Shown: in pieces, positions 22,606 to 57,899 of the stretch
How the letters are laid out: every line of letters starts with the position of its first letter
Position numbering within the stretch: position 1 is the first letter of the stretch
DNA from: Torpedo marmorata
Taxonomy: Eukaryota
Reading direction: 5' to 3'
DNA length: 64,000 nucleotides
Assembly (NCBI GenBank): GCA_977017645.1
Contig: OZ360236.1
Coordinates: 21,204,001 to 21,268,000 of the forward strand
Position numbers and translations under genes: made by a program
Notes under the pieces: generated by a model
The model's database searches: none
Told to the model about the DNA's origin: nothing
The model's input: only the letters and a program-made list of their open reading frames with translations

Positions 22606-22617
22606 ATCTATATCACT

Positions 22618-23042
22618 GACTGATACGGAGGTGCCAATGCTCAGGACAAGAAAAACTCCAGAGGGTTGCTAATTCGGCCTGCGACATCACGGGCATCACT
22701 CTTCACTCCATCGAGGACATCTACAAGAGGCGGTGCCTTAAGAAAGCAGCCTCTATCCTCAAGGACCCCCACCACCCAGGCCATGACCTCTTCACTCTGC
22801 TACCATCGGGAAAAAGGTACAGGAGCCTGAAGACGAGCACTCAGTGGCACAAGGACAGCTTCTTCCCCTCTGCCATCAGATTCCTGAATGAACAATGAAC
22901 CACAGACACTGCCTTGCTTTGACTTTTTCTTGCACTTTTTAAATTTTATTTTGTAAGGTGGTTTATATAAATGTTTGCACAATGATGCTTCTGCAAAACA
23001 GTGAATTTTGCGACATGTTCATGACAATAAATTTTGATTCTG
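22618..23042 (+). mobile_element. Rex1/Babar-type LINE 3' fragment
   Basis: Closely similar, in inverted orientation, to 29303-29710. Tail catgacaataaattttgattctga. Confidence 0.85.
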
Positions 23043-23209
23043 AAGAACTCAATTAGGCCCCTGAGGCACGACCTTCCCCTTACAGAATCAATAGATTTCC
23101 AATGTTATTTTAACTGCTCTATAACCACAGTGTCAGCTGTTTGCCTCAATGCCTCAGGTTATTTTGTGCTTAGTGCAAGCAAAAGATGATGCATGTCCTG
23201 TCATTTTAC

Positions 23210-23334
23210 CTGAGAAACGGTCACCACTGTTTGCCCGGCATATGGAGATGAGGCCAAATCAGATTCAGTTTTGATAGTTGATGCATTTTCAGAGTTCGAT
23301 ATAGAAGATGGGGAATTAGTTCCTGAGGTTGTGC
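23210..23334 (-). CDS. GATA5: GATA5 exon 6
   Basis: Acceptor ttccatttcag, donor CAG/gtaaaa. 125 nt, phase 1 to 0. Encodes (G)TTSGTNSPSSISNSENASTIKTESDLASSPYAGQTVVTVSQ. Confidence 0.88.
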
Positions 23335-24349
23335 CTGAAATGGAACAGAACTTGTTAATTCATTCAGTTTCTGAGCAGTGTGACATCTCATTTGATTGTT
23401 AAATCGGAGTCATTAATGTGGAAAGAACTGGCACCTCGACAGCAACTTTACAGGAGACCCCATGATAGTACAAAATGGACCGATGGACAAAATAGACAAA
23501 TGTGCCTGAAGTTTTGCTACTTGTCTAATTTCCTTATCGATTGTGTAAGTGTTTTCCTCCTCCAATGAATTTTTAAGATGATCAATTTTGTATACAGCAA
23601 GATCTGACAAGCAGCATAACAGATGAATTATTTTTGGTGGTATTGCTTAAAGCAGGAATCTTGCACGGGCCATGAGTCAGACCTTCTGTTCTTATGTCGG
23701 GGAATAACTCCAATGATACAGCAGTCCCTTCAGCTCTTCAATCAGCCTCAGCAGAGATTAAGGCCTCAATCAACCAACTTCAGTTTCAGGAAGCAAAATT
23801 ACTGGTGAAAGGATCAAGCTGGAAATATAACATTTGATCAGGATTGTTTAATTTATTTAACACGGGATCATCCATGACTTGGCTTGTTCCCACCTTCCTA
23901 ATATTCTTAGAATATGTCCTCAGGTTTAAACTTTTGTGCCTCACGTTCCTCATCTTAGCACTGGTATTATGATTATCTCGACCACTATATTCCTGCTTTT
24001 TGTGATCTATTTCGCACCGGGCTTTCTGTTCCAGCTTCTCCCTTTAATCGACAAAGGCTAAACAGCTCACCTACTATTATTACCCTTCTTATCAATACTA
24101 CTGCTTCGTTGGCCAACTGAGCCAAAGAATAAAATTACCCTGGACTGGGGGAGTGGAGAGAATTTTAAGCCAAATAGTGGGAGCAAGGGATCAAAGTTGG
24201 GAAGATTGGTAAATCAAAGAGACAAGACTACAGAGAAAGTTATTAACTTGGGAAATAATGAACAGTCTGTGATGAGAGGGCATCAGGAGTGCAAGACTAC
24301 GGTAATAGCAATTCAGTAGATACGGCCAGGTGATACAAATAATATGAAT

Positions 24350-26040
24350 AAAAATGAAGCTTCTGTATCTGAATGCACATAGCACTCAAGACAAAGCAGA
24401 TGAACTGTGTGCAAATTGAAATAAATATGATTTGGAGAGTAACAAAGGCCTGAATATTGAGGGGTGTATGACATTTAAGGACTGGAGTGATGAAAAGGTG
24501 GAGGAGTGGATCATTTCATTACTGGTGGTTTAAGTGCCACACTAGGATGCTCTAAGTTCAGGAAATTAGGACATAAAGCAGTTTGAGTGGTGATGGGAAA
24601 TAACTAGGGCACAAAATGACAAGTGGGATTGCTATTCAGGTCTCCTAACAATAACTGAACAGTAAATGAAGGATTAAATAATGAGAGCTTGTCGGAAAGG
24701 TATGGTGATAATCACAGGGGATTTTAATCACAACAGAGTGGAAGAAAATAGCTAGCTGAAATGTTCATCGTCACTTAGGAATAGTTTCTCAGAATAGTAT
24801 ATTCTGGAGCCAAACCCTGGTATTGTGCCACAATAATAATGGATTAATAATGCATTCACGGTGAAGACATTTCTTGGTAGCATTGATCATAACACAACGT
24901 AATCTTGCATTCGGTTTGAACACTGAATTTCATGACTTGTTCATGACAATAAATTCTGATTCTGATTCTGAAGGAGAGAAGAATGAACCCAAAGCTCGGA
25001 TTTTAATTCACGGCAACTTGGAGCACATGAAAGCAGATCTGAATGAGGTGAACTTGCAAATTAGGTTAAAGAATTGTTCAGTTGAAGTGCAAACATTTAA
25101 GTGAAGAGTTTTCAATGAGAAAGAAAGATTCCATGGACAGGGCCACTGTCCCTGACAACTAAAAAAGTTGAAAAGAGTATTAAACATGTAGATAAAGCAC
25201 TGAAGTAAAAACACAATGCTGGAGAAATTCAGCAGGTCAAACAGTATATTTTATATAGTAAAGATAAAGATACATAACCAAAGTTTCGGGCTTGAGTCCT
25301 TCATCAAGGTATGAGCAAAATATAGGCAGGCGCCTGAACAAAATGGTGCGGGTGGGGAAAAGGGTGGAGAGCTGGAGGAAAGAAGGTAGAGGGAAAGGGA
25401 AGAGAGAGAGAATGGGGAGTGGGCTAGCAGAAACTGGAGGTCAATATTAATGCTGTCTTTCACACCCCCTGAACTCTACCCCCTTCCCTCTCCATTCACA
25501 GAGCCTTCCCCCCTCCCCCTGTTTGCTGTTGTGCCCTCCCTCCCTTATCCACCTATTACCTCCTGCCGGTGGGACTGTGCTCTTACCTCTGTCCCTCCCC
25601 CCCACCACCATTTTGCTCGGGTGCCTGTCTACATTTTGTTCATACCTTGATGAAGGGCTCAAGCCCGAAATGTTGGTTATGTATCTTTATCTTTGCTATA
25701 TAAAGTACACTGTTTGACCTGCTAAGTTTCTCCAGCATTGTGTTTTTACTTCAATCATGGTGTCTGCAAACTTTGTTTTACTCTAGATAAAGCACTTATT
25801 GGTGCAAAAAAAGGTGGCCGGTCATAAGATTGGGGGAAAAAAGCAAAATGGCAAAGAATGACTTACAGGTTAATAACAAAAAAGGCAAAGCTTGCAAGAT
25901 CTATAATAGGAGATGGTAAGAATTTCTGTCAATATTTTATTCAGGTGTTTTTCATTGGTCTTACTATGGAAGATACAAGCAACATTGTAGTAAACGTGGT
26001 TTAAATGTTGAATTGGGGGAAAGAATGAAGGGAAAATTAC
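24350..26040 (+). mobile_element. Old decayed CR1 ORF2 (APE region) with younger insertions
   Basis: Remnants ctgtatctgaatgcacatagc (LYLNAHS, like LYxNARS) and ggggattttaat (GDFN). Confidence 0.55.
25202..25783 (+). mobile_element. Penelope-derived non-autonomous element with inverted 5' copy of its own 3' end and hammerhead-like motifs
   Basis: 25202-25340 is an inverted repeat of about 25615-25755. 13-bp TSD tagataaagcact at 25189-25201 and 25784-25796. Motif ccttgatgaagggctcaagcccgaaatgttgg. Confidence 0.78.
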
Positions 26041-26291
26041 AATCACCAGAAAGCAAGTGGTTGGAGCAGGTTGATATGTCTCTGGGTCCAAAGGAACTGA
26101 AACCAATGGGGTTTAAGAAAGCCTGTCATATGGTTGGAAACGTTTCGAACAAATTGTAATCCTTTATTCAAATTTTTTTTGAGGCATGTGTATATCTGTC
26201 TCCCCTGTTGAATTGTTTTATTTAACACATCATAAAGCAGGCCAGCTTTTAGTTTATGTCATATGAATGCAAGCTCTTTAATTCTTTGACC

Positions 26292-27152
26292 ACGGTTAAC
26301 GTAGCAGTTCGCGCAACACTGTTACAGCGCCAGCGACCAGGATTCGAATCCAGCGCTGAGTGTAAGGTGTTTGTTCGTTCTCCCCGTGTCTGCATGGGTT
26401 TCCTCCGGGTGCTCCGGTTTCCTCCCACCTTTCAAAACATACCGGGGGTTGTAGGTTAATTGGGTGTACAGTACGTTTCCGATTATCTGAAAACCACTCA
26501 CCGAAAATTTCAGTTGTCTGAAAAAAATTTTGGCGGCAACATGACGTCACAAGTTGAAAAAAAAATTTCACCCGACGTGCTCATGTGGGGCTCTGACGCG
26601 CTGTTTGTACCAGTTTGGTAACATCAGTGAGCGGCTCGAGGAAGTCGGCGGGTCAGGCAGCGCATGGGGAGATTGTCCTCGTTTCAGGTAACTCCATCCC
26701 CTCTCTCTTTCGATTTCTTCTTTACCCTCCACTGTACTTGGTTCTCCGCTATCCCAGTGTCATTAAGGAGAGCGGCCTCCCGGACAGGAGCGGGGACCTC
26801 GGGCTCCCGGGCAGGATCGGCGACGGCGGTGGGGAAGTGTCGGGGATCTGCGACGGCGGCAGGAGCGGGGACCTCGGGCTCCCGGGCAGGATTGGCGACA
26901 GCGGTGGGGAGGTGCCGGGGATCGGAGATGGCGGTGGGGAGGTGTCGGGGATTGGCGACGGCCGATACAAGTATTCTGCTGATGCTACTGGGCTGCTTAA
27001 AGCCATTTCTCAGTTATCCGAAAAATGCAGTTAACCGATACACGTCCGGTCCCGAGCATTTCGGATAATCGGAAACACACTGTATGTAATTGGTTGGCAT
27101 GGGCTCGTGGGCCTGAAAGGCCTGTTACCGAACTGTATGTCTAAATTTAAAT
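26292..27152 (+). mobile_element. V-SINE (HE1-like) split by a Tigger-like insertion
   Basis: SINE head and body at 26292-26468; the tail resumes at 27085-27152. Confidence 0.85.
26469..27082. mobile_element. TcMar/Tigger-like MITE with GC-rich internal repeats
   Basis: TIRs cagtacgtttccgattatctgaaa / tttcggataatcggaaacacactg with TA TSD. Repeats ggcgacggcggtgggga at 26775-26960. Confidence 0.85.
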
Positions 27153-27683
27153 AAGTTCATGTCCCTTTACCTTTATACTTTCCAATATCATAGTAACCTT
27201 CTGGCTGACTGCATGTTACTTCCATTCTCTATCTGGGAAGTATTTGAATGATCCAGGATTTAGAGAAGTGATCGATTGCTTCCTTGCTCTTGGGAGAATC
27301 AGCATTTGGGCAGATGCATGAGACCCCTTCAGTCCACATGCATTGTTTTAAACGTAACACAAGGAAAAGCAGACTGATAAGGCAAGAAGGATGGAGGACA
27401 ATTACTTTTGGAGACAAAAGAGCAATTACTTTTGCTTGTGCACTTTGACAGAGGAATGAAGTTTTGTGGCTATTCGGTCGGGGAGATCTATACAGTGCCA
27501 ATGTAGATTTTGTGTCATGAGGATGCAAAGCTCTTCTCCAGGATGCTTCCTCTTCTGACCAGAAGCGTTACCTTGGCAATGAGCCTCGGCAGTCCTTCAA
27601 GTCCACTCAATAATGGACTTGAAGGACTGCCGAGGAAAATGGAACAGGGTTCAAGTTGATGAAAATGATACAAAGAAGACTCA

Positions 27684-27845
<162 letters not shown>

Positions 27846-28062
27846 CTACTACTAGAGATATCATTCAACCAAGATCAAACCCAAATATGCTGTAGTATAT
27901 TTTGAACCTCAGTGGAACCTATTCAAAACTTCCCTTTCTGGGTTATTCTCTTTCATACACCGGAGAGACTAGGATTTTCACTTGTATAACCAGTCATATC
28001 AATGCAGACGACTTGAAACAACTCAATGTAGAATTGGTAAATGGAAACTGCCTTTAAAATCA

Positions 28063-28065
<3 letters not shown>

Positions 28066-28099
<34 letters not shown>

Positions 28100-28108
28100 T
28101 CTCTCTCT
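28066..28108. repeat. (CT)n microsatellite
   Basis: Near-pure CT run. Confidence 0.95.
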
Positions 28109-28580
28109 CAAATATATAAAACATGAGATGCTGTAAAACTGAAAATAAAAAAAAAATGCTGGAAATATTCAACAGGTCAGGCAGCACCTGTCGAAAGAGA
28201 TGTTTCGAGTCTGAGATTGTACATCAGAACTGGGAAAGAGAGAAAAACACATTAGTTTTCAATAGGAGAAAAGCAGGGGGAGGAGTGGGAAGAACAAAGG
28301 GAATATTGCTTGTAGGGTGAATTCAAATGGAATAATGGCGACAGCTATAAGTATATTAAGCTTCTTTGTCTTGTTTAATGTGTTGTAACTGGTGAGGCCG
28401 TGGGCCATGCCCAGCCGACCAGACTAAGTGAATAAAGAAAACTGATCCAAAAGGATAACAAAGCAGAAATGGCCAGCCTGATAAAAACAAAGAGTGAGTT
28501 ACCTGAAGTTGGAGAATTCAACATTAAATTTAAAATAAACCCACATTGAAGACAAACTGCTCTTCAAGCTTGCATTAGAC

Positions 28581-28953
28581 CAGTGGTTTTCAAACTGCCC
28601 CACTAAACTCACATTCCACCTTAAGTAATCCCTATGCCATAAGTGCTCTGTGATTAGTAAGGGATTGCTTAAAGTGGTATGTGAGTGGAAAGAAAAAATT
28701 TGAAACCCACTGTTTTAATCGTACCTAATTGACTCGTTATGTGCACGGTTTCATAACTCCAAAGGAAATGGGCCAATGACAATTTTTCTCAAGCAAAATA
28801 TTTCAGTAACAATTGGGTCTGGAGCAGTGGTTCTCAACCTTCCTTCCCACTCACATACCACCTTAAGCAATCCCTTACTAATCACAGAGCACTTATGGCA
28901 TAGGGATTGCTTAAGGTGGAATGTGAGTCTAGGGGGCAGTTTGAAAACCGCTG
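28581..28953. mobile_element. Composite hAT (Charlie-like) MITE with long inverted arms
   Basis: 28581-28712 and 28825-28953 are inverted copies, each bounded by cagtggtt..ca / ttgaaa..ctg. Flanks cattagac / atttagac. Confidence 0.85.
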
Positions 28954-29302
28954 ATTTAGACCTTGTTGTATGACTAAACTTTGAATTATTTTAATATCTC
29001 CATATATTGGATCAAATTTTGGTAAAGCTGGAGAAACTTGAATTTTTGAATCATTAAAGGGACTAAATGAATGTTATGTGGGTTTTCCATAGATTTAATC
29101 ACTTCCTGAACTAAATTAAAATATCAAATGATTCACACCAGGCTACTTCTTCAGCTAACTTAAAATCATTGTTAATCTGAAGTTTTTCTAAAAGTTTTGT
29201 TTCTGGTTCGTCAAGCAGAGGCGTACTTTCTGAGGTCAAAATTCTTTTGCACATCAAAGGTGTTGAGGGTCATTGGGCAGCACCATCAATGTTCATGAAG
29301 CA

Positions 29303-30130
29303 GAATCAGAATTTATTGTCATGAACATGTCACAAAATTTGTGGTTTTGCAACAGCATCATAGTGCAAACATTTATATAAACCACATTTCAAAATAAATA
29401 AAATAGTGCAAAAAAAAAGACACAGTGTCTGTGGTTCATTGTTCATTCAGGAATCTGATGGCAGAGGGAAAGAAGCTGGCCTTGTGCCGCTGAGTGCTCA
29501 TCTTCAGGCACCTGTACCTTTTTCCCCATGGTAGCAGAGTAAAGAGGGCATTGACTGGGTGGTGGGGTCCTTGAGGATAAAGGCTGCTTTCCTAAGACCC
29601 GCCTCTTGTAGATGTCCTCGATGGAGTGAAGTCTGGTGCCAGTGATGTCCCAGGCCAAGTTACCAACCCTCTGGAGTTTTTCTCCTGTCCTGAGCGTTGG
29701 CACCTCCGTACCAGACAGTGATGCAACCAGCCAGAATGCTCTCCATGGTACACCTGTAGAAGTTTTCGAGAGTCTTCAGTGACATACCGAATCTCTTCAA
29801 ACTCCTCACAAAATTTAGCCGCTGGCGAGCCTTCTTCGTGATTGCATCGACATGGAGGCTCCAAGACAGATCCTCAGAGATGTTGACACCCATGAATTTT
29901 AAGTTCTTGACCCTCCCCACTGCTGACCCCTCGATGAGGACTGGTTCAAGTTCTCCTGATTTCCTCCTGAAGTCCACAATCATCTCCTTGGTTTTGCTAA
30001 CATAGGATGCAAGTTTGTTGTTGTGACACCACTCAACTAGCTGATCGATCTCCCTCCTGTACGCTTCCTCATTGCCGTCTGTTATTCTGCCAAACAACCA
30101 TGGCATCATCGGCAAATTTGCAGATAGCAA
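29303..30130 (-). mobile_element. Rex1/Babar-type LINE, 5'-truncated
   Basis: YRREIDQLVEWC, KTKEMIVDFRR, ISEDLSWSLH, FYRCTMESILAGCITVWYG. Tail (ttctga)n. Confidence 0.9.
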
Positions 30131-30659
30131 TTGGAGCTTCAATGTACACTGGACAGATAAGCCCACTTGATTGTCATTTGATTCACCACTCAAACTATTC
30201 ACTCTCTTCAACTTTGACATGCTGTGGTAGCAGTGTTCAACTTCCACTAAAAAACACTTGCCAATGTTACTCCATCAGCACCTCCCAAATCCACCACCAT
30301 CACAGTTGCTGGAGGCATCAGCAAATGCAACTTCCTTCCCCCAAGTCACGCACTGCCTTAATCAGTAAATTTTCCTCCATCATCACTTGAGTGTAAATCT
30401 CTCTAAAGAATAATGTGGGAAAACATTCACCACAAGGTATTTCAAGGTAGGGTCTTACCGTGACCTTCTCAAGGGCAGTTAAGGATGGGAAATAAATACT
30501 GACCTTGCTAATTCCCACAAAAGAAAACATTAAAATTCTGATAGTCCCAGTGCTGTCTGGATTATTTAAGGGATAAACTATTAAATTTGACTTGCACATC
30601 ACACATCTGTTTCTTTCCAATGAATCTGAAAAACAGCTTATTTTTTTCCTATTCAGAAT

Positions 30660-31136
30660 TACCATATATACTCGTGTAATCATCAATTTTTTTGGACCAC
30701 TTTTTCGGGCCAAAAAAGGGGTGGGTCGACTTTTACATGGGTTGAACTTTTGACCTCGTGAAGTACCTGCGTTGTTCAAAGCAGGGAACTCAGATAGTCG
30801 GAGCCGGGTGGTAAGTCCACGGTAGGGAGTTCGGATGGGCTGGCGACCGGAGGAAGAATCACGGTCCAGAGCTCGGATGGGCAGGCGGCCGGGGCGTCAG
30901 GAGTTTGGATGGGCAGGCGACCGAGGCAAGAATCTGTGGTTGGGAGAGCAGATAGGCAAGCGGCTAGGGTGAGGGTCCACTGTAAGGGCGTGGGGAGCTC
31001 GGATGGACGGGTGGTCGGGGCCACAAATAGAGGGGTCGGCTTTTACACAGGTCATACAAAAACACCTGATTTTTGGGCCAAAAAAAGAGGGGTCGACTAT
31101 TAAACGGTATCGACGATTACACGAGTATATACGATA
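30660..31136. mobile_element. Tc1/mariner (pogo-like) MITE
   Basis: TIRs taccatatatactcgtgtaat / attacacgagtatatacgata. Longer relative of 60353-60618 in the opposite orientation. Confidence 0.8.
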
Positions 31137-31473
31137 ATTTAAACTTTTTAAAAAAATCTCCCACAGATGCTTGTCCACTACTGTCACTGAATGTGTTTGA
31201 ACACATCTCAAAGTCTGTCTAACCTTCCCAGTTTCTGTGGCACACTTAATTTAAAATTCTACCGCATAATCCTTAAATCCTGTCCTTGACAAAAGTAGTT
31301 CCTCAGGTCTAAATTTAACCTAGTTGTTAAAATCTCAAAGCTCTTTCCTAAATCATCCCCTCTTCATACTCCTCCCCAAAGTTTCAACAAGCAACACTCC
31401 TCATCACTTCCAGTCTGAGTTCAAGGATCCACTTGTCCTTCTGACTGCCATTTTCAAAAATATTCTTTAATTT

Positions 31474-31732
31474 TAAAAATTTTTATTTAGACATACAGCA
31501 CGGTAACTGGCCATTTCGGCCCACGAGTCCGTGCTGCCCAATTTACACCCAATTAACCTACACCCCCGGAATGTTTCGAACTGTGGGAGGAAACCGGAGC
31601 CCCCAGGGAAAACCCATGCAGACACGGGGAGAACGTACCAACTCCTTACAGACAGCGCGGTATTTGAACCCTGGTCCTGATCGCTGGTGCTGTAAAGGCG
31701 TTGCGCTAACCACTTCGCCAACCATGCCGCCC
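31474..31732 (-). mobile_element. tRNA-derived V-SINE (HE1-like)
   Basis: Full-length reverse complement of the 33759 copy. Confidence 0.88.
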
Positions 31733-32019
31733 ACATGTAAAGGTCAAAATTAAACATCTCAGTCAGTTGTTTGTTCAGAGGCATCCTTTATTTTGCTTGT
31801 CCCTGTTCGTATATTTCTTTCACCTTTACTATCTTCGAATACTGAATCCACAGTTTGAATAACCTTTTTCCCAAATCTTGTTGTTGCTCTGTTATATAAA
31901 CAGATGAATTCATTATCCACATCCTTCCATTTAATCTCCTGTGTATGGCACCAATAGAGGTCATTTATCTTCTTGGGTTCATATTGGCTCCAGCAGAACA
32001 AACCAAATATTTTTTCCAA

Positions 32020-32578
32020 GATAAAAATGCCAAATACTAGTGGACATGCATATTAGGTGAGAAGACGCAAGTTTAAAGGAGATGTGTGGCAAGATTTTTT
32101 TTACACATGTATGCCTGGAGTGGGCTGCCAGGAATAGTAGTGGAAGATGATCATGTTGAAGGTTTGGATCTGGAGCTCAGGTTGCCGATGGATCGAACAG
32201 GAATCTGTGCGGCTGCAGAGGCTACGGGGGCGCTCGAGGCAAATCCATGGGCAGTCAGTGACTCTGAAGGGACTCTCATTTGCTTCTCTTTCTCTCGTAC
32301 TGTAAAGGGTGCTGGGCTACACTAATGGCGACTCTTTGTCTGCCTTACGGCAGGCAGAAGGCAATTTTGTGGTATACTATTGCATGACAATAAAGGAATC
32401 TTGGAATCTTGTATGATACAATAGTACCACTTAAGAGGCTTCTAGATGGACAGATGAATATGGAGCGATATGGATCATGTTGCAGGGAGAAGAGATTTTG
32501 TTTAATTTGGCATCATGTTCAGTGCAGACATAGTGGCTGAAAGTTCCTGATCCTGTGTTGTACATTTCTATGTTCTAA
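32020..32578 (+). mobile_element. CR1 3' fragment interrupted at about 32152-32412 by a non-coding retroposon with a Rex1-like tail
   Basis: CR1 actagtggacatgc..AWSGLPGIVVE. The insert ends tgacaataaaggaatcttggaatcttg; possible short TSD atgat. Confidence 0.65.
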
Positions 32579-32639
32579 TTCCATCAATCCTGTTCACCTA
32601 TTGTCCTGCAACTTATTCACCCTCCCATACCCATTGATT

Positions 32640-33100
32640 CTCCTTTGGTTCTTTTGTCACTTACCTGCACAACCCGAACAATCTAAAATAAAAACAGTAA
32701 AACCCATGCCAGAAGCACTAGAGCACAAAAGATCTAAAACCTCATTGTGCCAAAAGTTTCTGGGCTGTGTCCCTGACAGACATAAACCAGACACCTGACC
32801 CACTGTCTCCCCAGCTAAACCACACCTTCTGCAACTTCTTTCCATATTAGGCCTTTCAAGAGCCAAGGCATTTTGAACAGGAGACACATTTGATGTAAGT
32901 AACAAGAAGGTGATGTCACCTGATTGCTTGAAAGACGTGTATCCCTTGACACAGCTGTGGAATTGGGGGTCATTCTAGTAGCAAGACATCCCAATACTTT
33001 GTTGACCGAGTCTGGACCATGTCCATCCAGTTGCTCTGTAAATTCCGATTTCCTTTCTACTAGCATTATCCCTATCAACACCCTCACTAAAACTAACAGC
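32640..33100 (-). mobile_element. Decayed RLE-type (R2/NeSL-like) non-LTR retrotransposon fragment
   Basis: CRRCGLAGETVGQVSGLC..HNEVLDLLCSSASGMGFTV is a CCHC knuckle plus RHN-type motif, homologous to 60890..61147. Confidence 0.65.
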
Positions 33101-33105
33101 CATAG

Positions 33106-33348
33106 TGGTTAACACAACGCCTTTACAGCGCCAGCGATCGGGACCGGGGTTCGAATCCCGCGCTGTCTGTAAGGAGTTTATACGTTCTCCCCGTGTTTGC
33201 GTGGGTTTTCCCCGGGGGCTCCGGTTTCCTCCCACCGTTCAAAACGTACCGGGGGTGTAGGTCATTTGGGTATAATTGGGCGGCACGGGCTCGTGGGCCG
33301 AAATGGCCTGTTATCGTGCTGTATGTCCAAATTTTTTTAAATTTTAAA
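33106..33348 (+). mobile_element. tRNA-derived V-SINE (HE1-like)
   Basis: B-box gggttcgaatccc, V-domain, tail ggccgaaatggcctg. Confidence 0.88.
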
Positions 33349-33758
33349 TAACGAAAAATCAAACTGGAAACTCGGGCAATTATCCAACCAATATGTCGAT
33401 ATTGAACAACATCCCCACCTGTTATTTCACTGATCTATCTAACATGGATCCCTTGGGATTAACTCACATTGGTAAATTTCATTACTTACTGCATTCAGTT
33501 TGTTGTCTTTTGCAAATTGTAACTTAAAAATACTGTCTTCTAAATCAATGGTAATGCTCTGTAATTTATGAAAATTATAACTAACACTGCCTCCTCTGGG
33601 ATTTCACAACTGGATTCCACATCATATCTCCCATTTTTTCCTGTTTATATTGCAGCCACATATTGTTCCAAACTGTTGTATCCGTATTATGAATCTATAA
33701 TGTGGAACAATGTATAATATCTTCTTCATGTTTATACCTAAATTCTTTACTACATTTA

Positions 33759-34012
33759 GGGCGGCACGGTTAGTGTAGCGGTTAGCACAGCGCTATTACA
33801 GCGCCAGCGATTGGGACAAGGGTTCGAATCCCACGCTGTCTGTAAGGAGTTTGTACGTTCTCCCCGTGTCTGCGTGGGTTTCCTCCAGGTGTTCCAGTTT
33901 CCTCCCACCGTTCGAAACGTACCGGGAGTTGTAGGTTAATTTGGAGTAATTGGGCGGCACGGGCTCGTGGGCCGAAATGGCCTGTTACCGTGCTGTATGT
34001 CCAAATTTAAAT
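33759..34012 (+). mobile_element. tRNA-derived V-SINE (HE1-like), full length
   Basis: Head gggcggcacggttagtgtagcggttagc, B-box ggttcgaatccc, core tctccccgtgtctgcgtgggtttcctcc. Confidence 0.9.
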
Positions 34013-34657
34013 TTTACATCTAAACTTTATTGTAAAATATTAACCTTCACCAGTAAAACTGAACATATGAAAATCCAATTGAACTGACATTCTATTGGAT
34101 TCATTCATAAATGTGGTAAGTTTATAAGTAGGCTTCACCAAAAATTTAACATGGGTATAAGCATTGTTAGTTTGAAATCTGATTTACACTTGTTGATTGT
34201 AACTATCAGCCTTAATGGTTCTCTAATGCTGGCAGATTTGCTTATGCTTTGCAAACAACTTCGAGATAACTTTGTGACTGAGAGCTGGGTGAAGCTAGCA
34301 AAAGCTGTAGGAACAAAGTTCATTTATTAAACTGCCATATGACCAAATTAAGGAATTAGATTCTGAGGCAGGTGTTCAATCTTGAATTAACGTATAATAT
34401 TTGATCTGATTGATAAATAATTAAATAAATTTCAACATGAGCACTGGGAGTGGCTAGCCTATTCATTTAAATTGTGTCCTGGTTGATGACTATGCTCCAG
34501 TAATCACTTCTCTCATCTGCAATTGAACTGGAAAGAGAAAATAGTCTGATGGACACTTCCCGTTTTTACTGAATATTTAAAATGCTCCTATTTTAAAACA
34601 ACAGGGAATAAAAGAGTCGGTGATTACTCAGAAATAATACAAACTCTAGTGTAAATT

Positions 34658-34880
34658 GTGGTTAGTGTAGCGATTGGCGCAACACTATTACAGCGCCAGT
34701 GACCCGGGATCGAATTCGGCGCCATCCATAAGGAGTTTGCATGTTCTCCGCAGTGCTCCGGTTTTCTCCCACACTCCAAAATGTACGGGGGTTGTAGGTT
34801 AGTTTGGGTCTAATTGAGCAGCACGGTTTAAATGGCCAGAACTAGCTTCTACCGTGCTGTAAATGAAATGTTAATTTAAA
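34658..34880 (+). mobile_element. tRNA-derived V-SINE (HE1-like), diverged
   Basis: ggttagtgtagcg..ttacagcgccag..aaggagtttg. Confidence 0.8.
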
Positions 34881-34918
34881 AAATAAATAGTTCACAGGTC
34901 TATTAAGTTCTAAATTCA

Positions 34919-35071
<153 letters not shown>

Positions 35072-36055
35072 TCAAACACAATTTTTGGAGCAGCTTTAAA
35101 TAACTTTAACATCCGTTGCTGCGACCTACAGAACTTAGCAACAATTTTTTTTTGGTTGGTACAAAGATTGTCATTCTATTTTTCTCATATGTGTTGTCCT
35201 TTATTCAGTTTTGTGAAAGGAATGTCCCAATTTGTTCGGGTGCACACAATTTCAACAAGGGATCAACTATCTGAACGCTACACAAGCTAATATAGGTGGT
35301 GTAAAGGAGAGCCTAGTCACAACTGTGTGTGTTGTTTTCGATCTAAGATAAAGGCCCAAGGTTCCTCCCATGCTTATTGAAAGGCACAAGGCTAAAATAA
35401 TTTATATCGCCAAGGCCTAAGTAGTTTATTCAGAACGGGGAATGGGCCTCTGAAGGATGCCTCTTCACAACTCTGACCTTGTCAAGGAAGTTGTTGACCC
35501 CCAACATTGTGATGTAGTGTTGTTATTTAAGACATAAAAATTATGAGTGTGTTTTGCAGGCTATTCAACTTGAATGGTGTTTGAGGACAGAAAGTTAAAT
35601 ATATTTTAAAGTATCGGAGCTTAAATTGCATTGAATGAAAAAGATAAGTAATTCAAGAAAAGTACTGCTTTAGGTTGCTTGGTTTTGGAAGATTGAGTGG
35701 ACCCCACCCCCCGCCTGCCCCACTCCAGCCTTCAGTTATCAATTTCGTGTCAGATTTCTCATCCAAAATCAATGAGGCTTTGCTCTCTATTCTGATTTAT
35801 GGTCTGGACCACCAGTAAATACATCTCAATGGGGAAAGGAAGGGAAAAGTCACAATTTTCAACAGAAAGATCTGTTGAAATAATCACCAAAATTGAAGGT
35901 GCTTAATATTTTCCAGGGTATCCTTTAATGGGTTACTTGACTTCACAAACCCAGGGTTTTTTTGAGAGATGATTGAGTGGATTGTGGAAGACGTTCTGCA
36001 CTGATTTAGAATATGTTTTTTTCGCTCATGATTCAAGATCAACCAAACTGCTTAC

Positions 36056-36222
36056 CAATCTCCTCTGCGGTTTAATGAGCGGTCGGTTCATCCCATTCAT
36101 CTTGTGATACAACCCACAGGCATTGCAGAGATAATGGCCCGTTCCATCCCGTCTCCAGAGTGGAGTAGACATGGACCCACAATTCACACACTCCCGACCC
36201 TCGGGGAACTCTTCCAACATTT
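36056..36222 (-). CDS. GATA5: GATA5 exon 3 (N-terminal zinc finger)
   Basis: Acceptor ttaaatag, donor TTG/gtaagc. 167 nt encoding (E)[55 protein letters not shown]. Confidence 0.96.
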
Positions 36223-37419
36223 CTATTTAATCAAATAAAGCAGAAAGAAAGAAATCAGTGACATCTGGTTTGTATAATACAGAGATTTGTGACTGTCAGA
36301 AAAGTGCATCCTGTTAAAAATATGTTCTAAAGAAATAAAATAAAAAATGGCTCCACAGCTAATAAATTATATTATTTATTACCCTACTCAGTCCTGGAGT
36401 ATGTTATCTTTAATTCATAATACATGAAAAAGCACATTAGCTTAAACTGGTGTAATTCTATACTATTAGCAAGGAAAAATAATGTTTAGATCACTTAGAA
36501 TCTAAGGTATTATGGAATTTCACCAAAAGGAGAACCATAATATTTCCTCCAATAATACTAAGTATTATTAAATTGTGATTTTGGTCACAATTCATATCCA
36601 TTATATATGCCAGTAAAAAGGATAAATGGTACAAATATCTGTCAAGATTTGAATTGTTTTTAACATCTCAATTGATTGAAAAATAAGAAAGGCTTACAAT
36701 TGATCGACAGTGTTCTTGGGCAAATTTTGTGACTTCACACTTGTATATTAATTTGACATATCAGTTTTCCTAGCATTGTATAAATGTTAAAATGGATGCA
36801 AGTTAGATATTTCTATCTTAAAATGATGCAAGTGGAATTCTAAATATTGGGAAGTTTCCACATAGCTTGAAGGAATAAGTGTTTTGTTCCACTGCATGTC
36901 TGTGAAAAGGCCTAACATTTGCCACAGAGAATTAACTTTCTCTTCCAATTACTAGCAGCAATGATAGTCAGGAGTCAATAGTACTTTCCAAATAAATGCT
37001 GAATAGTCAGTAAAAGATTTCCAAAAATGTAGGTGGAGGACAATACTTTACGATTTTATTGTAAGCAAGATGGACATCAGATCCAAATGCAATAAATATA
37101 GTGGATGTTTTGTAGTTGAAACGTGTCTGACAATCCATGTTAGTGATTCCTCTCTTACACTGGAAACAATAAATTTTATTGTGATCAAAAAGGTGGCATC
37201 CAAACGTGCCTGCGACTGCATTGTTACTTTATGCACCGTAAAGTGCTTTTAATAGAAGGCACAAATCATTTCCAAGGAAGATGAAAAAGAGATTAAACTG
37301 CAGGGCTTTTTTTTTTGAAGAGGGTTGGTGATAGAAATCATAATGCCTTGCCAAACTTTCCCGTTTTTCATCAAAGTGTTTTTGGATGTTGACTAGTGGC
37401 GACAAGGAGACTGGCTCCG

Positions 37420-37590
37420 AAGGCGGATGGAATGCTCATTTGTGTTACAGAACGCTCTGTGATCCACTACCCGATTTATCAATCACACCTATTGCACTCG
37501 GCTGACAAATGACAGCTTGTGGACGGAAAACAGGTCAACATTCTGGATTTATTCCTGCAGATGTCAAAACGTGCTGTAAACAAACCCCTT
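37420..37590. promoter_or_regulatory. Candidate intronic enhancer (motif cluster)
   Basis: GGAATG (TEAD), overlapping TTATCA / ATCAATCA / TCACACCT (GATA / PBX / T-box), TGACAG (MEIS), TGTAAACA (FOX) within about 160 bp of unique sequence. Confidence 0.4.
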
Positions 37591-39130
37591 CCTTAAAGGA
37601 GTTAAAATGTACTTTTTAAAACTTTAAATTCAAGCTGCTTCCTCAAACGAAGTCGATTCAACAATCTCCCTTCATCCTATCGTTCACTTCTGCATTACAC
37701 GATGTTTGTATCAGTAATTGTGAGCTAGATTGGAAAAGGAATTTACTAAGACACCCCTTCGCATCGTTCTTAAATTTTTTTTAGGAAGGCAGCGGATTTA
37801 AATCTTGGTAAACTGGTGCTGGCTGCGTGTTGAAAATTCATGCACATTTCCAATAACTAGAATCACAATCAGAATTTATTGTCATGAACAATTCATGAAA
37901 ATCGGTGTTTTGCGGCAGCATCATAGTGCAAACATTCATATTATAACCATATTACCATATCATAACCACATTACCATCAAACTAGCGTTTGTTGGTAGTC
38001 AGAAGATTGTTATGAGAAGGGTATTTTACAAATCTGAGACTATATAGGAATAAATGTAATAGTGTGTTTATAAAGACACATATGTTTTAAATCGATTGAT
38101 TTTTATATTCACATTAATATATTTTAGAGTACTCGTGAAATTGTTAGGTGTTGGAACGTGTCTTTCACTATGAAGGATTAGACAACTACCGCCGAACTTA
38201 ATCTAAATTCCTGTGATAAATCTTATCAATGTGTCCATTTATCACTTAATTAATTTAATATCGAACGATGCAAAGATACCAAATGTATCTAATATTTGAT
38301 AGCACGTTTCAATGGGCTGTTAAAATATTGAAAATGTCCCCTCTGTTAATTCCAATCTATGACAGTTAAAAGTGGACGTTGAGTATTAGCAGGTAAAGAA
38401 GTGTGATACTTGGGATGGTCGATCAAGTTTCACTGTCTCTTTCTATCTTCATCTATGGTAAATAACGGGTGTATTTGCAGATTGTTTTCGAGATTGAGTC
38501 AAAGGACTTATAGACTTTTTAAAGAGTATGCGCTGAGCTAATGTGATCCAGTAAAGTGCTTAATAGGCTTACAAGCCATAAATTTCTAATGTTACTTTAA
38601 ACATCTTCAAAACAGTTAGTGTTAGAAAATGTCTCAAAGAGCATTGTCGAGTCCAGATTCAGCCGATCCACATTGTTTAATGTTTTCGGGCAATGACATA
38701 AATTACTGCCTTGCATTTGCTAGTCTGAATATTTGCAGAGATAAACACACTTCAGTGTAACCAATCAAACTAAACCAGTCCTCGGTATTTTTATTACTTC
38801 AGAACTCCATTCTTTTTTTTCAAACTAGATTTCCAGACGCCGAATGAAATGAAGTATTATGATGTTTAACGTGGCCATAATAAGGCCATCTCCGAATTTA
38901 GTTTCGAACGTTTATTCTTTTCTATGTACCAGGCGCAAAAGCAGTGTTTAAAGACGTCGCATTTCCAGAAAGATAATTGTGATGTGTACTATTTATAAAT
39001 TACCGCCACGTATTTATTTAAATATGTAGCACACAGAATAACATTTAGCTGAAAATTTAAATGAAATGGGATCTGCCGTTTTCTTTTTAAAGATATGCTA
39101 AAAAATTAAAACAAACACTTGGTCTTGTCA

Positions 39131-39252
39131 CGAGTAAAACACGAATACCTTGATGAAGGGCTCAAGCCCGAAACGTTGGTTATGTATCTTTATCTTTGCT
39201 ACATAAAGTACACTCTTTGACGTGCTGATTTTCTCCAGCATTGTGTTTTTAC
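39131..39252 (+). mobile_element. Short Penelope-derived insertion with hammerhead-like motif (39147-39180)
   Basis: acc-TTGATGAA-gggct(ca)agccc-GAAA-cgtt-ggt, preceded by an inverted terminal stub gagtaaaacacgaa. Flanks tggtcttgtca / tggtcgtgtca. Confidence 0.78.
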
Positions 39253-40649
39253 TGGTCGTGTCATGTTGTTTTTGATGTAATATCTTGATTCGTTCGTTTT
39301 GCCGAAAGTTCTAAACAGATGACGAGTAAGTATAGAGAATAAATGACTTTAGTGGCTTCAAACTACCTGCTGCAAAACTGAATTGGACCACTATCTCCCC
39401 AGTAGATACACCCTTTTTGCCTGTGTCGTAGAGGCCGACTGGTCGCAAGAATTACTGGAAAGACCAGGGTCAAACAGATAAAAAGAATGATTTGAAAATG
39501 AATTGTTTAAATGACACATTTCATGTATATTAAAATAAAATATACAGAAAGTGTTGTCTCAATGTACAGGATAATTTAACTTTTTTACAATTTGTATCTG
39601 GTTGAGAGAATCGCATCTGTCAAAAAAAATGTTTTGTTGCAAAACTTAACTTCCCAGAAAGTCGCAACTATTTGTTCGAGCCAACTTAACACATGGATGT
39701 TCAAGCGGTGACTTAATTTGCATGGTTTGTCCAGAACTTAATTCAACAGAACTTGTCCAGCGACTCTCTACAATTATAATTTACACTATGATCAATAAAA
39801 CAATATAATCAAACTAAAATTAACAATTTTAATTTTTATCCATCGTTATTTTGTCAACAGTTCCAATGAAAATATTGCTGTTTCAGTAAGATCTTTTAAA
39901 TTTTAAATGTGCCAACGCGCATGAACACAACATTAGAAAGTGGACAATTAATTCTCTAAGACAGTCCAACTTGGCAAAGTGAAATCCAGTCCTAAATTGG
40001 GAATAGCTTTAGAACGACCTATTTACAGATGTCAGTGCGTAATAGTTTGCGATGAATGAGTTTTCGGTGTGGAAGCAATTGCTAATCGGCATCACAACAC
40101 TTGGACTACAGTCTACCCAAAACGGGTGAAAAGGTGGCCCATTTTTAAAACAAAATGACAGTCGAAGAGTGTGATAAATCAAACACTGACTGTAATTTCA
40201 AGCTATTAGGTACACAGTTGCCCCGAGGTCACTGCGAGTGCTCCGGCCCTCCGCTGCGCTCCGGGTTTGTCATGTTCATCATAGCCCTGGGCTGAAACAC
40301 CAATTCCGATTACACGCGAAGAAAATTTCAGGTAGTAACAGTTGAAATCGGAAAATGAAGTTGTTAATTGTTATTCAGGAGAGAACCCGCTGTTATTGAA
40401 AGAAGATGAATATTATTCCCCAAATTGAATTATATTTGGGGGGTTGTGGGTTATAAAGTATCCTGTGGCTCGTCAGATCGTAATGTTTGTTCCAACTTTG
40501 CCGCAGTTACAATATGTGCAGCAATATTTGTTCAAAGGGGCCTCCAATCGTATACAGGACATACGTCTTTAATGGTACGAAATATTTATTTGGACTCGAG
40601 CGGTTGTACTGCCCTCTCCAATTTTTTGAAATGAATGTCAGTGACTTAC

Positions 40650-41178
40650 CCAGACTGGATCTCCTGCCAGACATGGAGACTTGTCTTGCCTGAAGGCTGT
40701 GAATCATCGAGCTCTCGAACGGTCCAGGTGGCCAGGCTGAAGTCATCTCTGGCCCGACGTAGGTAGGATACGGACTGGAATAGGTTCCGTTCACCGATCT
40801 GACCAGGGCATTCCCGTACTGCTCCCTGCCACCGGCGCTGATGACCAAAGGGTTGGTGTACGCCGCATCCCTCCCTGCGCCGTGGCTCATGGGGGGACTG
40901 TGAGAATAGGAGAAGGTGGTCGAAGGATGCGGGCTACTGGCGTTGAATCCAGAGTTTTCTGTGACTGATTGCGGCCAGCCCGTGTGATTGCTCAGGTGAT
41001 GACTCTGATGGGCTGAATCGCAGTTCTGGAGGTAGGGTAGGCTGGGTAACATGGAAGGGACGCGAGTTGTCGGCACGTACACGGGTGAGCCCGCCGAAGA
41101 ATGCATAAAATTGCCGGAAGCCTCGTGGGGATAGGTCGGTTGTCCATGGTTTGCAGCTAGCGCCAAACTTTGGTACAT
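40650..41178 (-). CDS. GATA5: GATA5 first coding exon (exon 2, transactivation domain)
   Basis: MYQSLALAANHGQ..SPVYVPTTRVPSMLPSLPYLQ..FSYSHSPP..SWPPGPFE. In-frame TAG two codons upstream of the ATG. Donor G/gtaagt, 529 nt, phase 1. The six exons total 1200 nt (399 aa). Confidence 0.95.
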
Positions 41179-41385
41179 TTTCTATCCGACCCGAAGCCCT
41201 GATGCGTCACGAAAACGAATGCACACTGAAATTGTTTAAACTCTGAATGCACTCAAATTGCCTTCACTTTGAAATCAGTTCATTGCTAATTGTGTAAATA
41301 AGAGGGGTCCCTCAAAACGAAGACGACCGCGGGAAACCGTCAATGTTCCTCTATTCACGCTCTGACCTCTCAGCGAGAAATTCAC
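41179..41385 (-). other. GATA5: GATA5 exon 2 5' UTR portion
   Basis: Strong acceptor atttatttgtttcag/GTG at 41386-41387. Confidence 0.7.
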
Positions 41386-41685
41386 CTGAAACAAATAAAT
41401 AGATCACAATTATAAATGACTCATGGTACAATCTGTCGTCCAGTGTTCACCACCAGCTTGATGCGCTCCCCAAAGTGAAATACCTGTTCTAAGTGACAAC
41501 TTCCCCTTAACTTTAAGCCCACGACCTTTGAGCAAGTTCTATTTCAACATTTTAAATGGGGTCATCTAGAGTTGATATTTTAAAGTAATGTTTTGTTCTA
41601 AATATACCGGCCGAGATGTTGATTTAAAATAGACTTCCGGGGTTGCAGAATGCATCAAAGGCTCTTTCTAAACTGTGATTCCATA

Positions 41686-41828
41686 CCTTGATGAAGGGCT
41701 CAGGCCCGAAACATTGGTTATGTATCTTTATCTTTGCTATATAAAGTACACTGTTTGACCAGCTGAGTTTCTCCAGCGTTGTGTTTTTACTTCAGCCACG
41801 GTGCCTGCAGACTTTCGTCTTTTACTAC
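41686..41828 (+). mobile_element. Short Penelope-derived insertion starting at the hammerhead-like motif
   Basis: 10-bp TSD tgattccata at 41676-41685 and 41829-41838. Begins ccttgatgaagggctcaggcccgaaacattgg. Confidence 0.8.
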
Positions 41829-42340
41829 TGATTCCATATGGTTATTCTATGATTTAAGACAAAATTTCAGGATCTGTTCTGACTAAAACAGATCCGGTAG
41901 AATAAGATTTGCAACTTCACAATGCACATAAGGCATGAATAATTTCTCCAGCATGAAATATTTTCTAGTGTTAATCGAATAAACAATATAACTTGTGTAT
42001 ATTAATCCAATTTTAAGGTTTCCGCGACTGTGGCAGAAATTTAAAATACAGTATATATCGTGGAGTCATGAGCGTTTATAGAATGCCTGTCCCTTTACCC
42101 GAAGGCGCCCTATAAAACTTTCCACCTTGGGGTTAAAGTCGTTATTATCTCTGACCACACAAATCACAAAAAAATCGATAACTGCGCTGCTCTAAAGTAA
42201 TAGCAAGGTTTTACACGGCATCCTCTATCTATGCGATAAGGAAACTTGACAGATAAGGGCGAGGAGGGAGAGAGAGAGAAAAAAGTCTCCACCCGGCAGA
42301 TTCATTGACTGCGGGGGATTACTTTAAACAATACACTTAC

Positions 42341-47231: not shown

Positions 47232-47625
47232 TGGCAACGTTATTTTTTAAAAAAGGCACGGATCTTGCATTGAAGTAAGCAGATTATCTTCAAAATTCAT
47301 CCACACTGTACTGGACCTTTGGCCCATTTCCCCCACCGAGCGGCGTCTTGTTGTCAGTCAGGTATTCGGTTAATTCACCAATTCTTTGGATTTAACTCAG
47401 AATTGGAGGTCAGCTCTTCGTGTCGTATCGCTTTATTTCCCCAGCAATCTCGCTCTGCTCTGAGTGTGCGTTGTTTAATTTGAGTGGTTAAAATATACAA
47501 AGAGAACCCCTCAGTTGTCCAGGTTCCCTGGTGTCGCTACATCATGCCTCGTCCTCTTATCCGCATCTGTTGCTTTCTGCTGGCAATTATTAAAGTTATC
47601 TGTCTCATTGTTAATGTAGACGATT

Positions 47626-47935
47626 TGAAGTAAAAACACAATGCTGGAGAAACTCAGCAGGTCAAACAGTGTACTTTATGTAGCAAAGATAAAGGTACAT
47701 AACCAACGTTTCGGGCTTGAGCCCTTCATAAAGATATCACTCTCTGGATACCCTTTATCACCCCTTTCTCTCTATCGACTACATGGCGTCTTTTTCCTGA
47801 TCTAGTCTTGATGAATGGTTTCGGATCCAAACATTGACCGTTCTTTTACTCCCACTGATGCTGCTCGACCCGCTGAGTTTCCCTAGCAGTTTTGGTTTTG
47901 CTCGAAATTCCAGCATCTGCAGTCTCTCGTGTGTC
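47626..47935. mobile_element. Two Penelope-derived short repeats in inverted arrangement
   Basis: 47626-47730 is a reverse copy of the 39147 family, truncated in the hammerhead core. About 47760-47935 is a diverged forward relative (cttgatgaatggtttcggatccaaacattg). Confidence 0.7.
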
Positions 47936-48794
47936 TGGCGTCTTTGTATATTGGATTCCATTTTTTGTTCGTATTGCTGCTGCTGATGTCAGTGTAGGTC
48001 CAGGCTCGCAGTACTGATCACTGTAGGTGGTCCCTCACTCTAGTTTCGCGATGCGTAAGATTCTTCGGAGGCTGAGGGGGTGGGGGAGGGGGTGTGGGGG
48101 TGGGGTGGGTAATTCGGCATCTACCGACCCATTCACAGGGTATTCCGAAGATTTGGCAATTTCACAATGACCAGTCCTCAATGCTCTGTTGTTTTTAATC
48201 ATCTCCTTATCTCTACCAGCTTTCTGTGTGAGTACCTATCTGGGTCCTGGGCTCTTTGCCTCCGAGTGTGTGTCAAGACAGATTCTGTCTTTGAACTGAC
48301 TGGCAATTCCCTTCTCACTCACACACTCTGACCTGTATTTGAGTTCACACTCCCTGAATAGGTCAAGATATTATAGAACTGTAACATGATTACAGCACAG
48401 GAGGCTCCAGGCCCCAGACCCAGAGGGTTCCCTACACCCTTTCCCTGTAGTCCTACATGTGTTCCCCTTCCAAGTGCTGACTGGTTCTCTTTTGAAACGG
48501 AATCTGTTCTTATTCATTTTTTTAAAAATTATTTTATTTAAACTTTTAAATCACAAAATACATAGAGTAAAATATAAAATTGTCCAAATACATGTGATAT
48601 ATTTTCACCCCCCCCCACCTCCCTCCCCTCCCTAGCCCCCCCCCCTCCCCACTAATCTAATAATATAAAGTAACAGTAAAAATAAAAATAGAAAAAAGAA
48701 AAGAAAGGAAAAGATAGAGTAAGGGGAATATCATCTATAAACTAATTCTATTACGGAGGTCAAGTTTGCCAGCAGATCCGATATCTAGAGATCT

Positions 48795-54439: not shown

Positions 54440-55416
54440 CTTCTATCACTTCTGTCCTGTGCTGCAAGGCCTACAAGCCCTGATTTTGCATCTCTCCATC
54501 CCAACAACGTTCTACAGGAATACAAAAGGGAGTGTCCTGGCTGGCTGCATCATAGGGTGGTCTGGTGGTTGCAAAGCATCAGATCGGAGATCAGTGCAGA
54601 GGGTGATTAAAACTGCTGAGAAGTTACTGGGGACTCCTTTCCCTCTATCGATGATATCTACAGGGAGCGGTGCTTAAAGAGGGCTCAGAGAATCATTGAG
54701 GACCCTTACCATCCAGCCTGCAGTATCTTTAGCCTCTTTCACACTGGCTAACCAGTAAATTGGCCATTCAGTGTCCCGGTTAAAGAAGCCGTTTTTTGTT
54801 CACACTGGGCCACTGTTAACCGGGACACTGCGTCCTTTCACATTCACCACAAGGCATCCCCGGGGATAGGAGAGTCTACCTTCTACTGGAATCCCTGGAT
54901 AGTAAGTGTCCCTTTCACACTGGGCTAATCGGCACGCAGGCGTCAGATGAAGCCGGGGTTGAGAGTAGGGGCCGAGGCCGTCCATCCCCGGCGTGATTTG
55001 ACGCCGGCATGCTGATTAATTCGCTTTCACACTGGACCCTTAAACGGTAAATCGGCCGTCAATTACTAGGACAAGGTGCCAGTGTGAAAGGGGCTTTTGA
55101 GACACTATCTTCAAGGAAGAGGTACAGGAACATAAAATCCAGGGCTGCCAGGCTGGGAAACAGCTTCTTCCCGCAGGCAGTGAGACTGTTGAACAATTCT
55201 AGAAACCCATAAATTATTTTTATATACCGGTATATTTATTTTGGATCACTCTGTATATACGTATTAGTGTGTAGGGTGTACTGTGTGTCTGTGTGTGTGC
55301 ACTATGGTCCAGAGTTACGCTATTTCGTTGGGTTGTATATGTATATGCATATTTCTCCAGCATTGTGTTTTTACTATGTATATGTACACTCAGATGACAA
55401 TAAACGAACTTGAACT
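54440..55416 (+). mobile_element. Rex1/Babar-type LINE 3' part, interrupted by a MITE
   Basis: FYRNTKGSVLAGCIIGWSG, VQRVIKTAEK, atcattgaggaccc. Tail caataaacgaacttgaac. Confidence 0.82.
54731..55095. mobile_element. PIF/Harbinger-like MITE
   Basis: TIRs agcctctttcacactggc / gccagtgtgaaaggggct with 3-bp TSD ttt. Internal ttcacactgg repeats. Confidence 0.78.
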
Positions 55417-57655: not shown

Positions 57656-57872
57656 GGGCGGCACTGTGGTTAGCACAATGCTGTTACAGCGCCAGCGACC
57701 CAGGCTCAAAGATTATACGTTCTCACTGTGACTTGCGTGGGTTTCCTCTGGGTGCTCCGGTTTCCTCCCACTCTTCAAAATCATAGGGGGATTGTAGGAT
57801 AATTGGTGTGTTTGAGGGGCAAGGACTCGTGGGCCAGAAGGGTCTGTTACTGTGTTGGATGTCTAAATTTAA
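57656..57872 (+). mobile_element. tRNA-derived V-SINE (HE1-like), diverged
   Basis: gggcggcac..ttacagcgccagcgacc..gggtgctccggtttcctcccac. Confidence 0.82.
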
Positions 57873-57899
57873 AATAACAATGTCAAATAATTATGGGTC

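Follow-up and report, generated by a model that had tools for sequence, protein, structure and literature searches.

Minimal hammerhead ribozymes (min-HHRs) are known from the pseudo-long terminal repeats (pLTRs) of metazoan Penelope-like elements (PLEs) (Cervera and de la Peña 2014, PMC4209133). In these motifs an extra base after A9 and a palindromic CG-U-H are typical, and a GUU triplet is frequent in Fig. S3 of that paper. The form discussed in its text, and in PMC3088659, carries U3 with A8, and Fig. S3 prints for the PLE-linked Saccoglossus kowalevskii(1) the core that is the subject of the present work, with U3-G8, an extra A and CGUU. The published minimal motifs of metazoans showed no cleavage as monomers and weak cleavage as dimers; the constructs assayed were those of S. 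mansoni family 1, D. virilis and S. lacrymans, with U3-G8 not among them (PMC4209133). It is described as unclear whether cleavage by PLE hammerheads is needed at all (PMC8557442). Here we analyse a 64,000-nt stretch of the Torpedo marmorata genome (GCA_977017645.1, contig OZ360236.1, positions 21,204,001 to 21,268,000; hereafter the window, whose own coordinates are used throughout), in which a short hammerhead-bearing repeat recurs in and near the GATA5 gene. A preliminary description of the window had taken this repeat for a family of non-coding elements that depend on Penelope, possibly a retrozyme-like system. We conclude, with a probability of roughly 0.9, that the units are 5′-truncated, partly inverted stubs of the 3′ pLTR of an abundant PLE that encodes a reverse transcriptase (RT) and a GIY-YIG endonuclease joined by a Neptune-type linker.

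The repeat and its coding element

The genome, of 6.2 Gb, contains 7,831 exact copies of a 30-nt word from the motif and 9,397 of a 40-nt word located downstream, while reversed control words gave no genome match. The 30 best genome matches had a common 3′ end and shared between 2 and 724 nt of upstream sequence, and in locus L029 the upstream sequence codes for an RT with YIDD, a cysteine linker and a GIY-YIG domain. When loci were retrieved with DNA of the RT, endonuclease and untranslated region (UTR) that lacked the unit, the unit was directly downstream in 28 out of 30 (27 out of 29 without the query's own locus). This colinearity with the coding element bears out the link to Penelope that had been suspected. 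A search with the RT protein gave 127 scored matches, and the unit was present in 25 of the 30 loci fetched. The five loci without it (L075, L076, L080, L089 and L092, at G000:C45:25.7-29.2 Mb) resemble copies of one duplicated segment; their RT copies have identical frame coordinates and no pLTR, and are likely one truncated copy within a multiplied segment.

Several of 20 wider stretches contained RT (YIDD), linker and GIY-YIG, the latter carrying CxxC, in a single open frame of 774-941 aa, and in L097, L098 and L101 a Cx4CxxC linker precedes the GIY-YIG domain. Pfam assigned RVT_1 (E 7e-7 to 4e-6) and GIY-YIG (E 2e-4 to 1e-2), matches that are significant and slightly under the curated cut-offs, and database relatives of the open reading frame (ORF) carry RVT_1 and, in many cases, GIY-YIG too. 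No Pfam family matched a 331-aa RT fragment alone, and a PDB sequence search with the 941-aa ORF gave no match. Five copies (L095, L098, L105, L107 and L109) proved to be full-length, with a pLTR-ORF-pLTR organization in which the two direct pLTRs are 3.8-4.4 kb apart and 96-98% identical, so that the autonomous PLE with the same pLTR, for which a search had been proposed, was found. As for the structure of individual copies, L098, L107 and L109 have a common 5′ pLTR boundary ∼500 nt upstream of the motif, and L098 and L107 share an upstream piece joined from deeper inside the ORF, which suggests that they go back to a single source copy whose partial tandem had been rearranged. Upstream of the RT, the young elements L095, L096 and L097 bear a long Pro/Ala-rich, internally repeated stretch whose frameshifts differ by copy.

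The linkage to this ORF also decides whether the unit could be the ordinary tail of a long or short interspersed element (LINE or SINE), or the terminus of a DNA transposon, with a hammerhead-like word in it by chance. 5′ truncation and variable target-site duplications (TSDs) are compatible with LINEs, and Rfam, applied to the window with a limit of E ≤ 1, gave no hammerhead or other relevant family. However, a one-frame RT with a C-terminal GIY-YIG lies upstream of the unit, together with direct pLTRs, and a LINE or SINE tail or a DNA-transposon terminus is therefore refuted. Neither does the word look fortuitous, as it agrees position by position with the published PLE min-HHR consensus and varies in sister families at position 7, which is free in hammerheads, with five other core positions invariant. 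We hold this explanation to be exceedingly improbable; the absence of Rfam families indicates that minimal motifs are evidently not captured by Rfam.

The extent of individual copies was determined in 90 loci sampled in contig order through the 40-nt word (30 plus 60 of the 100 matches listed, out of 9,397). Since this word is 3′ of the motif, the motif was not imposed on the sample, which retains a few duplicates or pairs of arms of one insertion (L182/L183, L248/L264 and L277/L278). The 5′ ends, which were taken from local alignments and are uncertain by a few nt, ranged from +70 to beyond -1400 relative to the motif; the upstream extension exceeded 50 nt in 45 loci and 300 nt in 31, and 16 reached the locus edge. 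What had been considered a separate non-coding family thus consists of variably 5′-truncated ends of the coding element. The 3′ ends were bimodal, with 35 short and 55 tailed ends ∼35 nt apart. An adjacent inverted arm was present in 21 out of 90 loci, and in 19 of these 21 the tail was on one arm only.

The same ends bear on the possibility that the family is a non-LTR retrozyme, that is, a set of non-coding tandem repeats that the hammerhead would process into monomers and circles and PLE proteins would reinsert. A hammerhead motif and a PLE partner are both present, and animal retrozymes have been reported as derived from PLE pLTRs (bioRxiv 10.64898/2026.07.22.740005). However, there were no tandem copies in the window and no head-to-tail arrays among 120 loci, where same-strand motif pairs were rare (4, with a spacing of 263-1162 nt). 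Only 2 of the 90 5′ ends fell within +30 to +40, around the predicted cut (+34/35). Inverted arms ended exactly at the predicted cleavage site in L186 and L189 (+35 and +36), 2 out of 21 being too few to carry meaning, and the idea of cleavage-defined 5′ ends was rejected. Moreover, the motif belongs to the minimal PLE type and not to the canonical type tied to retrozymes in PMC7229834, and colinearity ties the unit to coding PLE DNA. With no tandem units, no independence from the ORF-bearing element and 5′ ends that avoid the cut site, the retrozyme-like system put forward in the preliminary description is largely refuted for the window copies, and we consider it very improbable.

Several observations weigh against the interpretation of the units as truncated pLTR stubs. 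An exact TSD (8-16 bp) was present in only 20 of the 74 loci that did not run to the locus edge. The pLTR of the window's subfamily (GUU) is 84-87% identical to that of the youngest ORF-bearing subfamily (GUC), an identity that leads us to assign the window copies to an older sister subfamily. For precisely this subfamily an intact ORF was not found; L029, the nearest coding copy encountered, is frameshifted. The Neptune label is putative, since it comes from the motif layout (with a linker shared with Nematis) and not from a tree with named references. Finally, 18 out of 90 5′ ends were located within a 22-nt stretch from -11 to +10, at the 5′ edge of the motif, a density above that of the neighbouring bins that random truncation alone does not predict.

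This density could be explained if the shortest class of copies (∼110-145 nt, starting at the 5′ edge of the motif) were copied from a short template of its own, as a SINE-like solo-pLTR class, for example from RNA started at a pLTR promoter or through RT stalling at the hammerhead fold. Most flanking bins hold 0.2-0.3 ends per nt, and four of the five window units begin at this edge. However, the stretch was picked after the first 30 loci had been seen, and in the held-out 60 loci the 5′ edge accounted for 8 out of 28 5′ ends (p = 0.12, not significant). Besides, the ends are scattered across the 22 nt instead of being fixed, and as local-alignment ends they carry an uncertainty of a few nt; a second bump of 5′ ends occurs at +55 to +64, and short copies, as judged by eye, have no diagnostic bases of their own. 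In a separate set of 30 loci, picked by the motif itself, the 5′ end was within 36 nt in 12 loci and more than 300 nt away in another 12. The proposed check of 5′ ends at the motif revealed a gathering at the 5′ edge, short of significance in the held-out loci, but not near the cut. We regard a template of its own as unlikely.

The insertions near GATA5 and other repeats of the window

GATA5 is encoded on the minus strand, its coding exons (41178-40651, 36226-36047, 35068-34940, 27776-27687, 23359-23207 and 21710-21549) spanning 21549-41178 with the ATG at 41178, and the protein is 94% identical to stingray GATA-5. All five units listed before (at 25202, 25646, 39147, 41686 and 47626) were recovered, with pairwise identities of 89-95% (E 1e-41 to 1e-56), and a 24-nt fragment of the pLTR 3′ end was added to them at 55352-55375 (plus strand), with 12-bp near-repeat flanks in TA-rich DNA. 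They represent four insertions, the units at 25202 and 25646 being arms of a single one under one TSD. The three target duplications of 10-13 bp and the two inverted copies of the element's own 3′ end were likewise found as reported.

Insertion 1 is bounded by identical 13-bp TSDs (25189-25201 and 25784-25796). Its inverted, 5′-truncated arm (25201-25453, minus strand), delimited by blastn to L029/L107 and by self-comparison, comprises PLE 3′ UTR and pLTR without tail, and its direct arm (25471-25782, plus strand, antisense to GATA5) comprises 3′ UTR and pLTR with a ∼35-nt tail, inside the intron bounded by the exons at 27687 and 23359. Compared with the subfamily majority, the hammerhead motif of the inverted arm (25273-25313, minus strand) is damaged by a broken stem II and G16.2>U, and that of the direct arm (25641-25681, plus strand) carries C15.2>U. 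The direct arm continues ∼170 nt further 5′ into the PLE 3′ UTR, at variance with a fixed unit of 110-140 bp.

Insertion 2, inside the intron bounded by the exons at 40651 and 36226, has an 11-bp TSD (39120-39130, with one mismatch against 39253-39263). It comprises an inverted 15-nt piece of the pLTR tail (39131-39145, minus strand), whose reverse complement matches the family's outermost 3′ end, followed by a pLTR stub (39145-39253, plus strand, antisense to GATA5); the tail missing from this direct arm is thus present as the inverted piece. Insertion 3 is a pLTR stub with tail (41682-41828, plus strand, antisense to GATA5; motif G16.2>A) and a 10-bp TSD (41676-41685/41829-41838) that overlaps the first 4 nt of the element. 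It is on the upstream side of the GATA5 ATG, 504 nt away. Insertion 4 is a pLTR stub without tail (47625-47737, minus strand) with a hammerhead core broken by G5>U and no TSD within 60 nt. Hence, of the units that had been assigned to GATA5 introns, those at 41686 and 47626 are upstream of the start codon, and their placement in a 5′ UTR intron can at best be inferred; the gene itself was correctly named. Each window copy shows 2-6 differences from the subfamily majority per 108 positions, and the copies are likely decaying passengers. Their position within or just upstream of GATA5 might suggest that they have been co-opted to cut or regulate its pre-mRNA. However, the sole intact motif, at 39147, lies antisense to GATA5, both motifs in sense orientation are broken, and four insertions in 64 kb are unremarkable because the family has at least 9,397 exact-word copies. 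We give such a co-option next to no chance.

Regarding other repeats, a decayed pLTR of a different PLE family (47795-47935, plus strand), with a UUGAUGA core and damaged stem II and GAAA, is head-to-head with the copy at 47626 and flanked by a 10-bp direct repeat (47784-47793 and 47936-47945). A weak match to the 3′ part of the pLTR (28143-28179, minus strand; 78% over 37 nt) is probably a remnant of an older PLE family. A repeat of ∼250-300 nt whose 5′ part is tRNA-like is present in about ten copies (11782-11995, 17701-17873, 18729-18973, 26294-26468, 27078-27152, 31538-31732, 33086-33338, 33759-34012, 34660-34812 and 57670-57874) and presumably resembles shark HE1-type SINEs. An element of ∼140 nt similar to a miniature inverted-repeat transposable element (28818-28960) has terminal inverted repeats and forms a near-perfect hairpin, and sequence similar to it was found within the L057 pLTR. 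Short tandem arrays are located at 7709-7955 and 26785-26964, with periods of 50 nt and 75/30 nt.

Core, conservation and decay of the hammerhead motif

The only intact motif in the window is a minimal type I hammerhead motif at 39147-39180 (plus strand), recognized by sequence, motif scan, folding and the architecture of Fig. S3 in PMC4209133. It contains helix I (ACC/GGU), U3-UGAUGA at 39150, an extra A, a 4-bp stem II, GAAA at 39170-39173 and CGUU at 39174-39177, with the predicted cut after 39177. It matches the published layout of helix I, CUGANGA-H box, G10.1-C11.1 stem II and GAAA-N-palindrome-U-H, except for U3 in place of C3. The preliminary description was right in seeing a minimal hammerhead fold, of the type found in PLE pLTRs. 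Its details need amendment: stem II, drawn as 5 bp with 2 nt, folds as 4 bp with a 4-nt loop, and the motif quoted for both 39147 and 41686 is exact at the former, the latter reading ...ctcaggccc-GAAA-cauu.

U3 together with G8 was found in 35/35, 28/30, 48/48 and 5/5 copies across sets, and in 61 of 64 dispersed copies on which the core was not imposed (26 of the 90 loci had been dropped as truncated or gapped). Of 15,275 sister-type words, the first 100 included 96 with U3, and in sister families position 3 was T in 16 and C in none of 22 (8 out of 30 having been dropped). As G8 remains G, only a wobble pair is possible, and the Watson-Crick core pair, C3-G8 or U3-A8, is absent. U3 is thus a master-level trait, fixed in the lineage; the variant core noted before is real, and had already been published for Saccoglossus. 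A C3 master for the family was rejected, with 460 exact C3 words against 7,831 of the longer U3 word, and 15 C3 loci that were inspected appeared to represent scattered point changes or deletions within the same families. At position 17, the youngest subfamily has GUC in 44 out of 48 copies and the window's subfamily has U17 in 34 out of 35, the latter in a query-biased set; a less biased set of 64 contained 47 U and 17 C. GUU as mere CpG decay of GUC was partly rejected, considering the U17 count in that biased set and the few TCAG counterparts.

In the 22 sister-family sequences position 7 varied (A in 15, G in 5 and T in 2) and G8, A9, A13, A14 and A15.1 were invariant, a pattern that points to selection on the hammerhead in the source elements. 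Among the 64 dispersed copies the motif was intact in 10, with losses at CpGs, as corresponds to neutral CpG decay. Stem II of the dispersed copies showed no covariation (four double changes, one of them giving a standard pair) and is nearly identical between families, and the outer part of helix I differs between families in a way that is, by eye, partly compensatory. An uncompensated C3U change lowers hammerhead activity further, and our literature search found no kinetic data for U3-G8. In the source RNA the predicted hammerhead would probably cut weakly at best, and only as a dimer, and in the copies of the GATA5 region it is likely a weak or dead cutter.

Probable insertion route and comparison with described systems

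Linkage of the unit to RT and endonuclease, full-length copies, graded 5′ truncation, two fixed 3′ ends, TSDs and CpG decay can all be seen in the copies themselves, and the enzymatic steps that we infer behind them follow PLE biology. The full-length element would be transcribed from its own pLTR, the GIY-YIG endonuclease would nick the target and the RT would prime at the pLTR end and usually stop early, leaving stubs by target-primed reverse transcription. Template switching or second-strand priming could generate the inverted arm, and staggered nicks the 10-13-bp TSDs. The inverted arms, the tail of ∼35 nt on one side and the variable TSDs have all been described for PLEs (PMC8557442). This is a new fish PLE family that carries the hammerhead PLE pLTRs are known to carry, and the finding is ordinary, because the odd core has already been described and is likely a weak or dead cutter. 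Its meaning is mostly that of repeat annotation, the residue being a very high-copy, recently active lineage with a fixed U3-G8 core, in which the need for cleavage by PLE hammerheads finds a natural test case. A more far-reaching proposal, which we find distinctly improbable, is that a whole Neptune-type radiation in this genome has kept the U3-G8 hammerhead under selection and that the shortest of its insertions start at the 5′ edge of helix I and not at the cut site. The motif would then serve as a mark for RNA start or as a fold at which the RT stops or jumps, and would give rise to solo pLTRs as a SINE-like class, cleavage being slow or dispensable. If true, the function of PLE hammerheads would become directly testable.

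Non-LTR animal retrozymes are alike in bearing hammerheads and in their reported derivation from PLE pLTRs, but they are head-to-tail repeats of 150-450 bp whose motifs are mostly canonical type I and whose RNA occurs in linear and circular form (PMC7229834; bioRxiv 10.64898/2026.07.22.740005), whereas the copies of the window family are scattered stubs, single or inverted, that are colinear with a coding element. Endonuclease-bearing (EN+) PLEs of the Neptune clade share with it the single ORF, the RT, a Cx2-5CxxC linker, the C-terminal GIY-YIG in which CxxC separates GIY from YIG, extensive 5′ truncation, the partial-tandem pLTR, the adjacent inverted 5′-truncated copy, a 30-40-bp tail on one end and variable TSDs; no structural difference emerged from the accessible part of PMC8557442, and the database relatives carry no clade names. 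No paper on the pLTR of this ray family was found, and the supplements of bioRxiv 10.64898/2026.07.22.740005 may list a chondrichthyan one. The min-HHRs of PMC4209133 resemble the motif described here in the short helix I, the extra base between A9 and G10.1, G10.1-C11.1, the lack of a true helix III, the palindromic CG-U-H and the pLTR location, and they also occur mostly as single motifs of truncated PLEs or as opposite-strand pairs, the closest entries of Fig. S3 being Saccoglossus kowalevskii(1) and the Neptune entry of Acropora digitifera. In contrast, the accessible table and alignment of that paper include no cartilaginous fish and its U3-G8 case is given in the figure, without discussion in the accessible text, while in the ray several sister families, which give tens of thousands of word matches, all have U3-G8 fixed.

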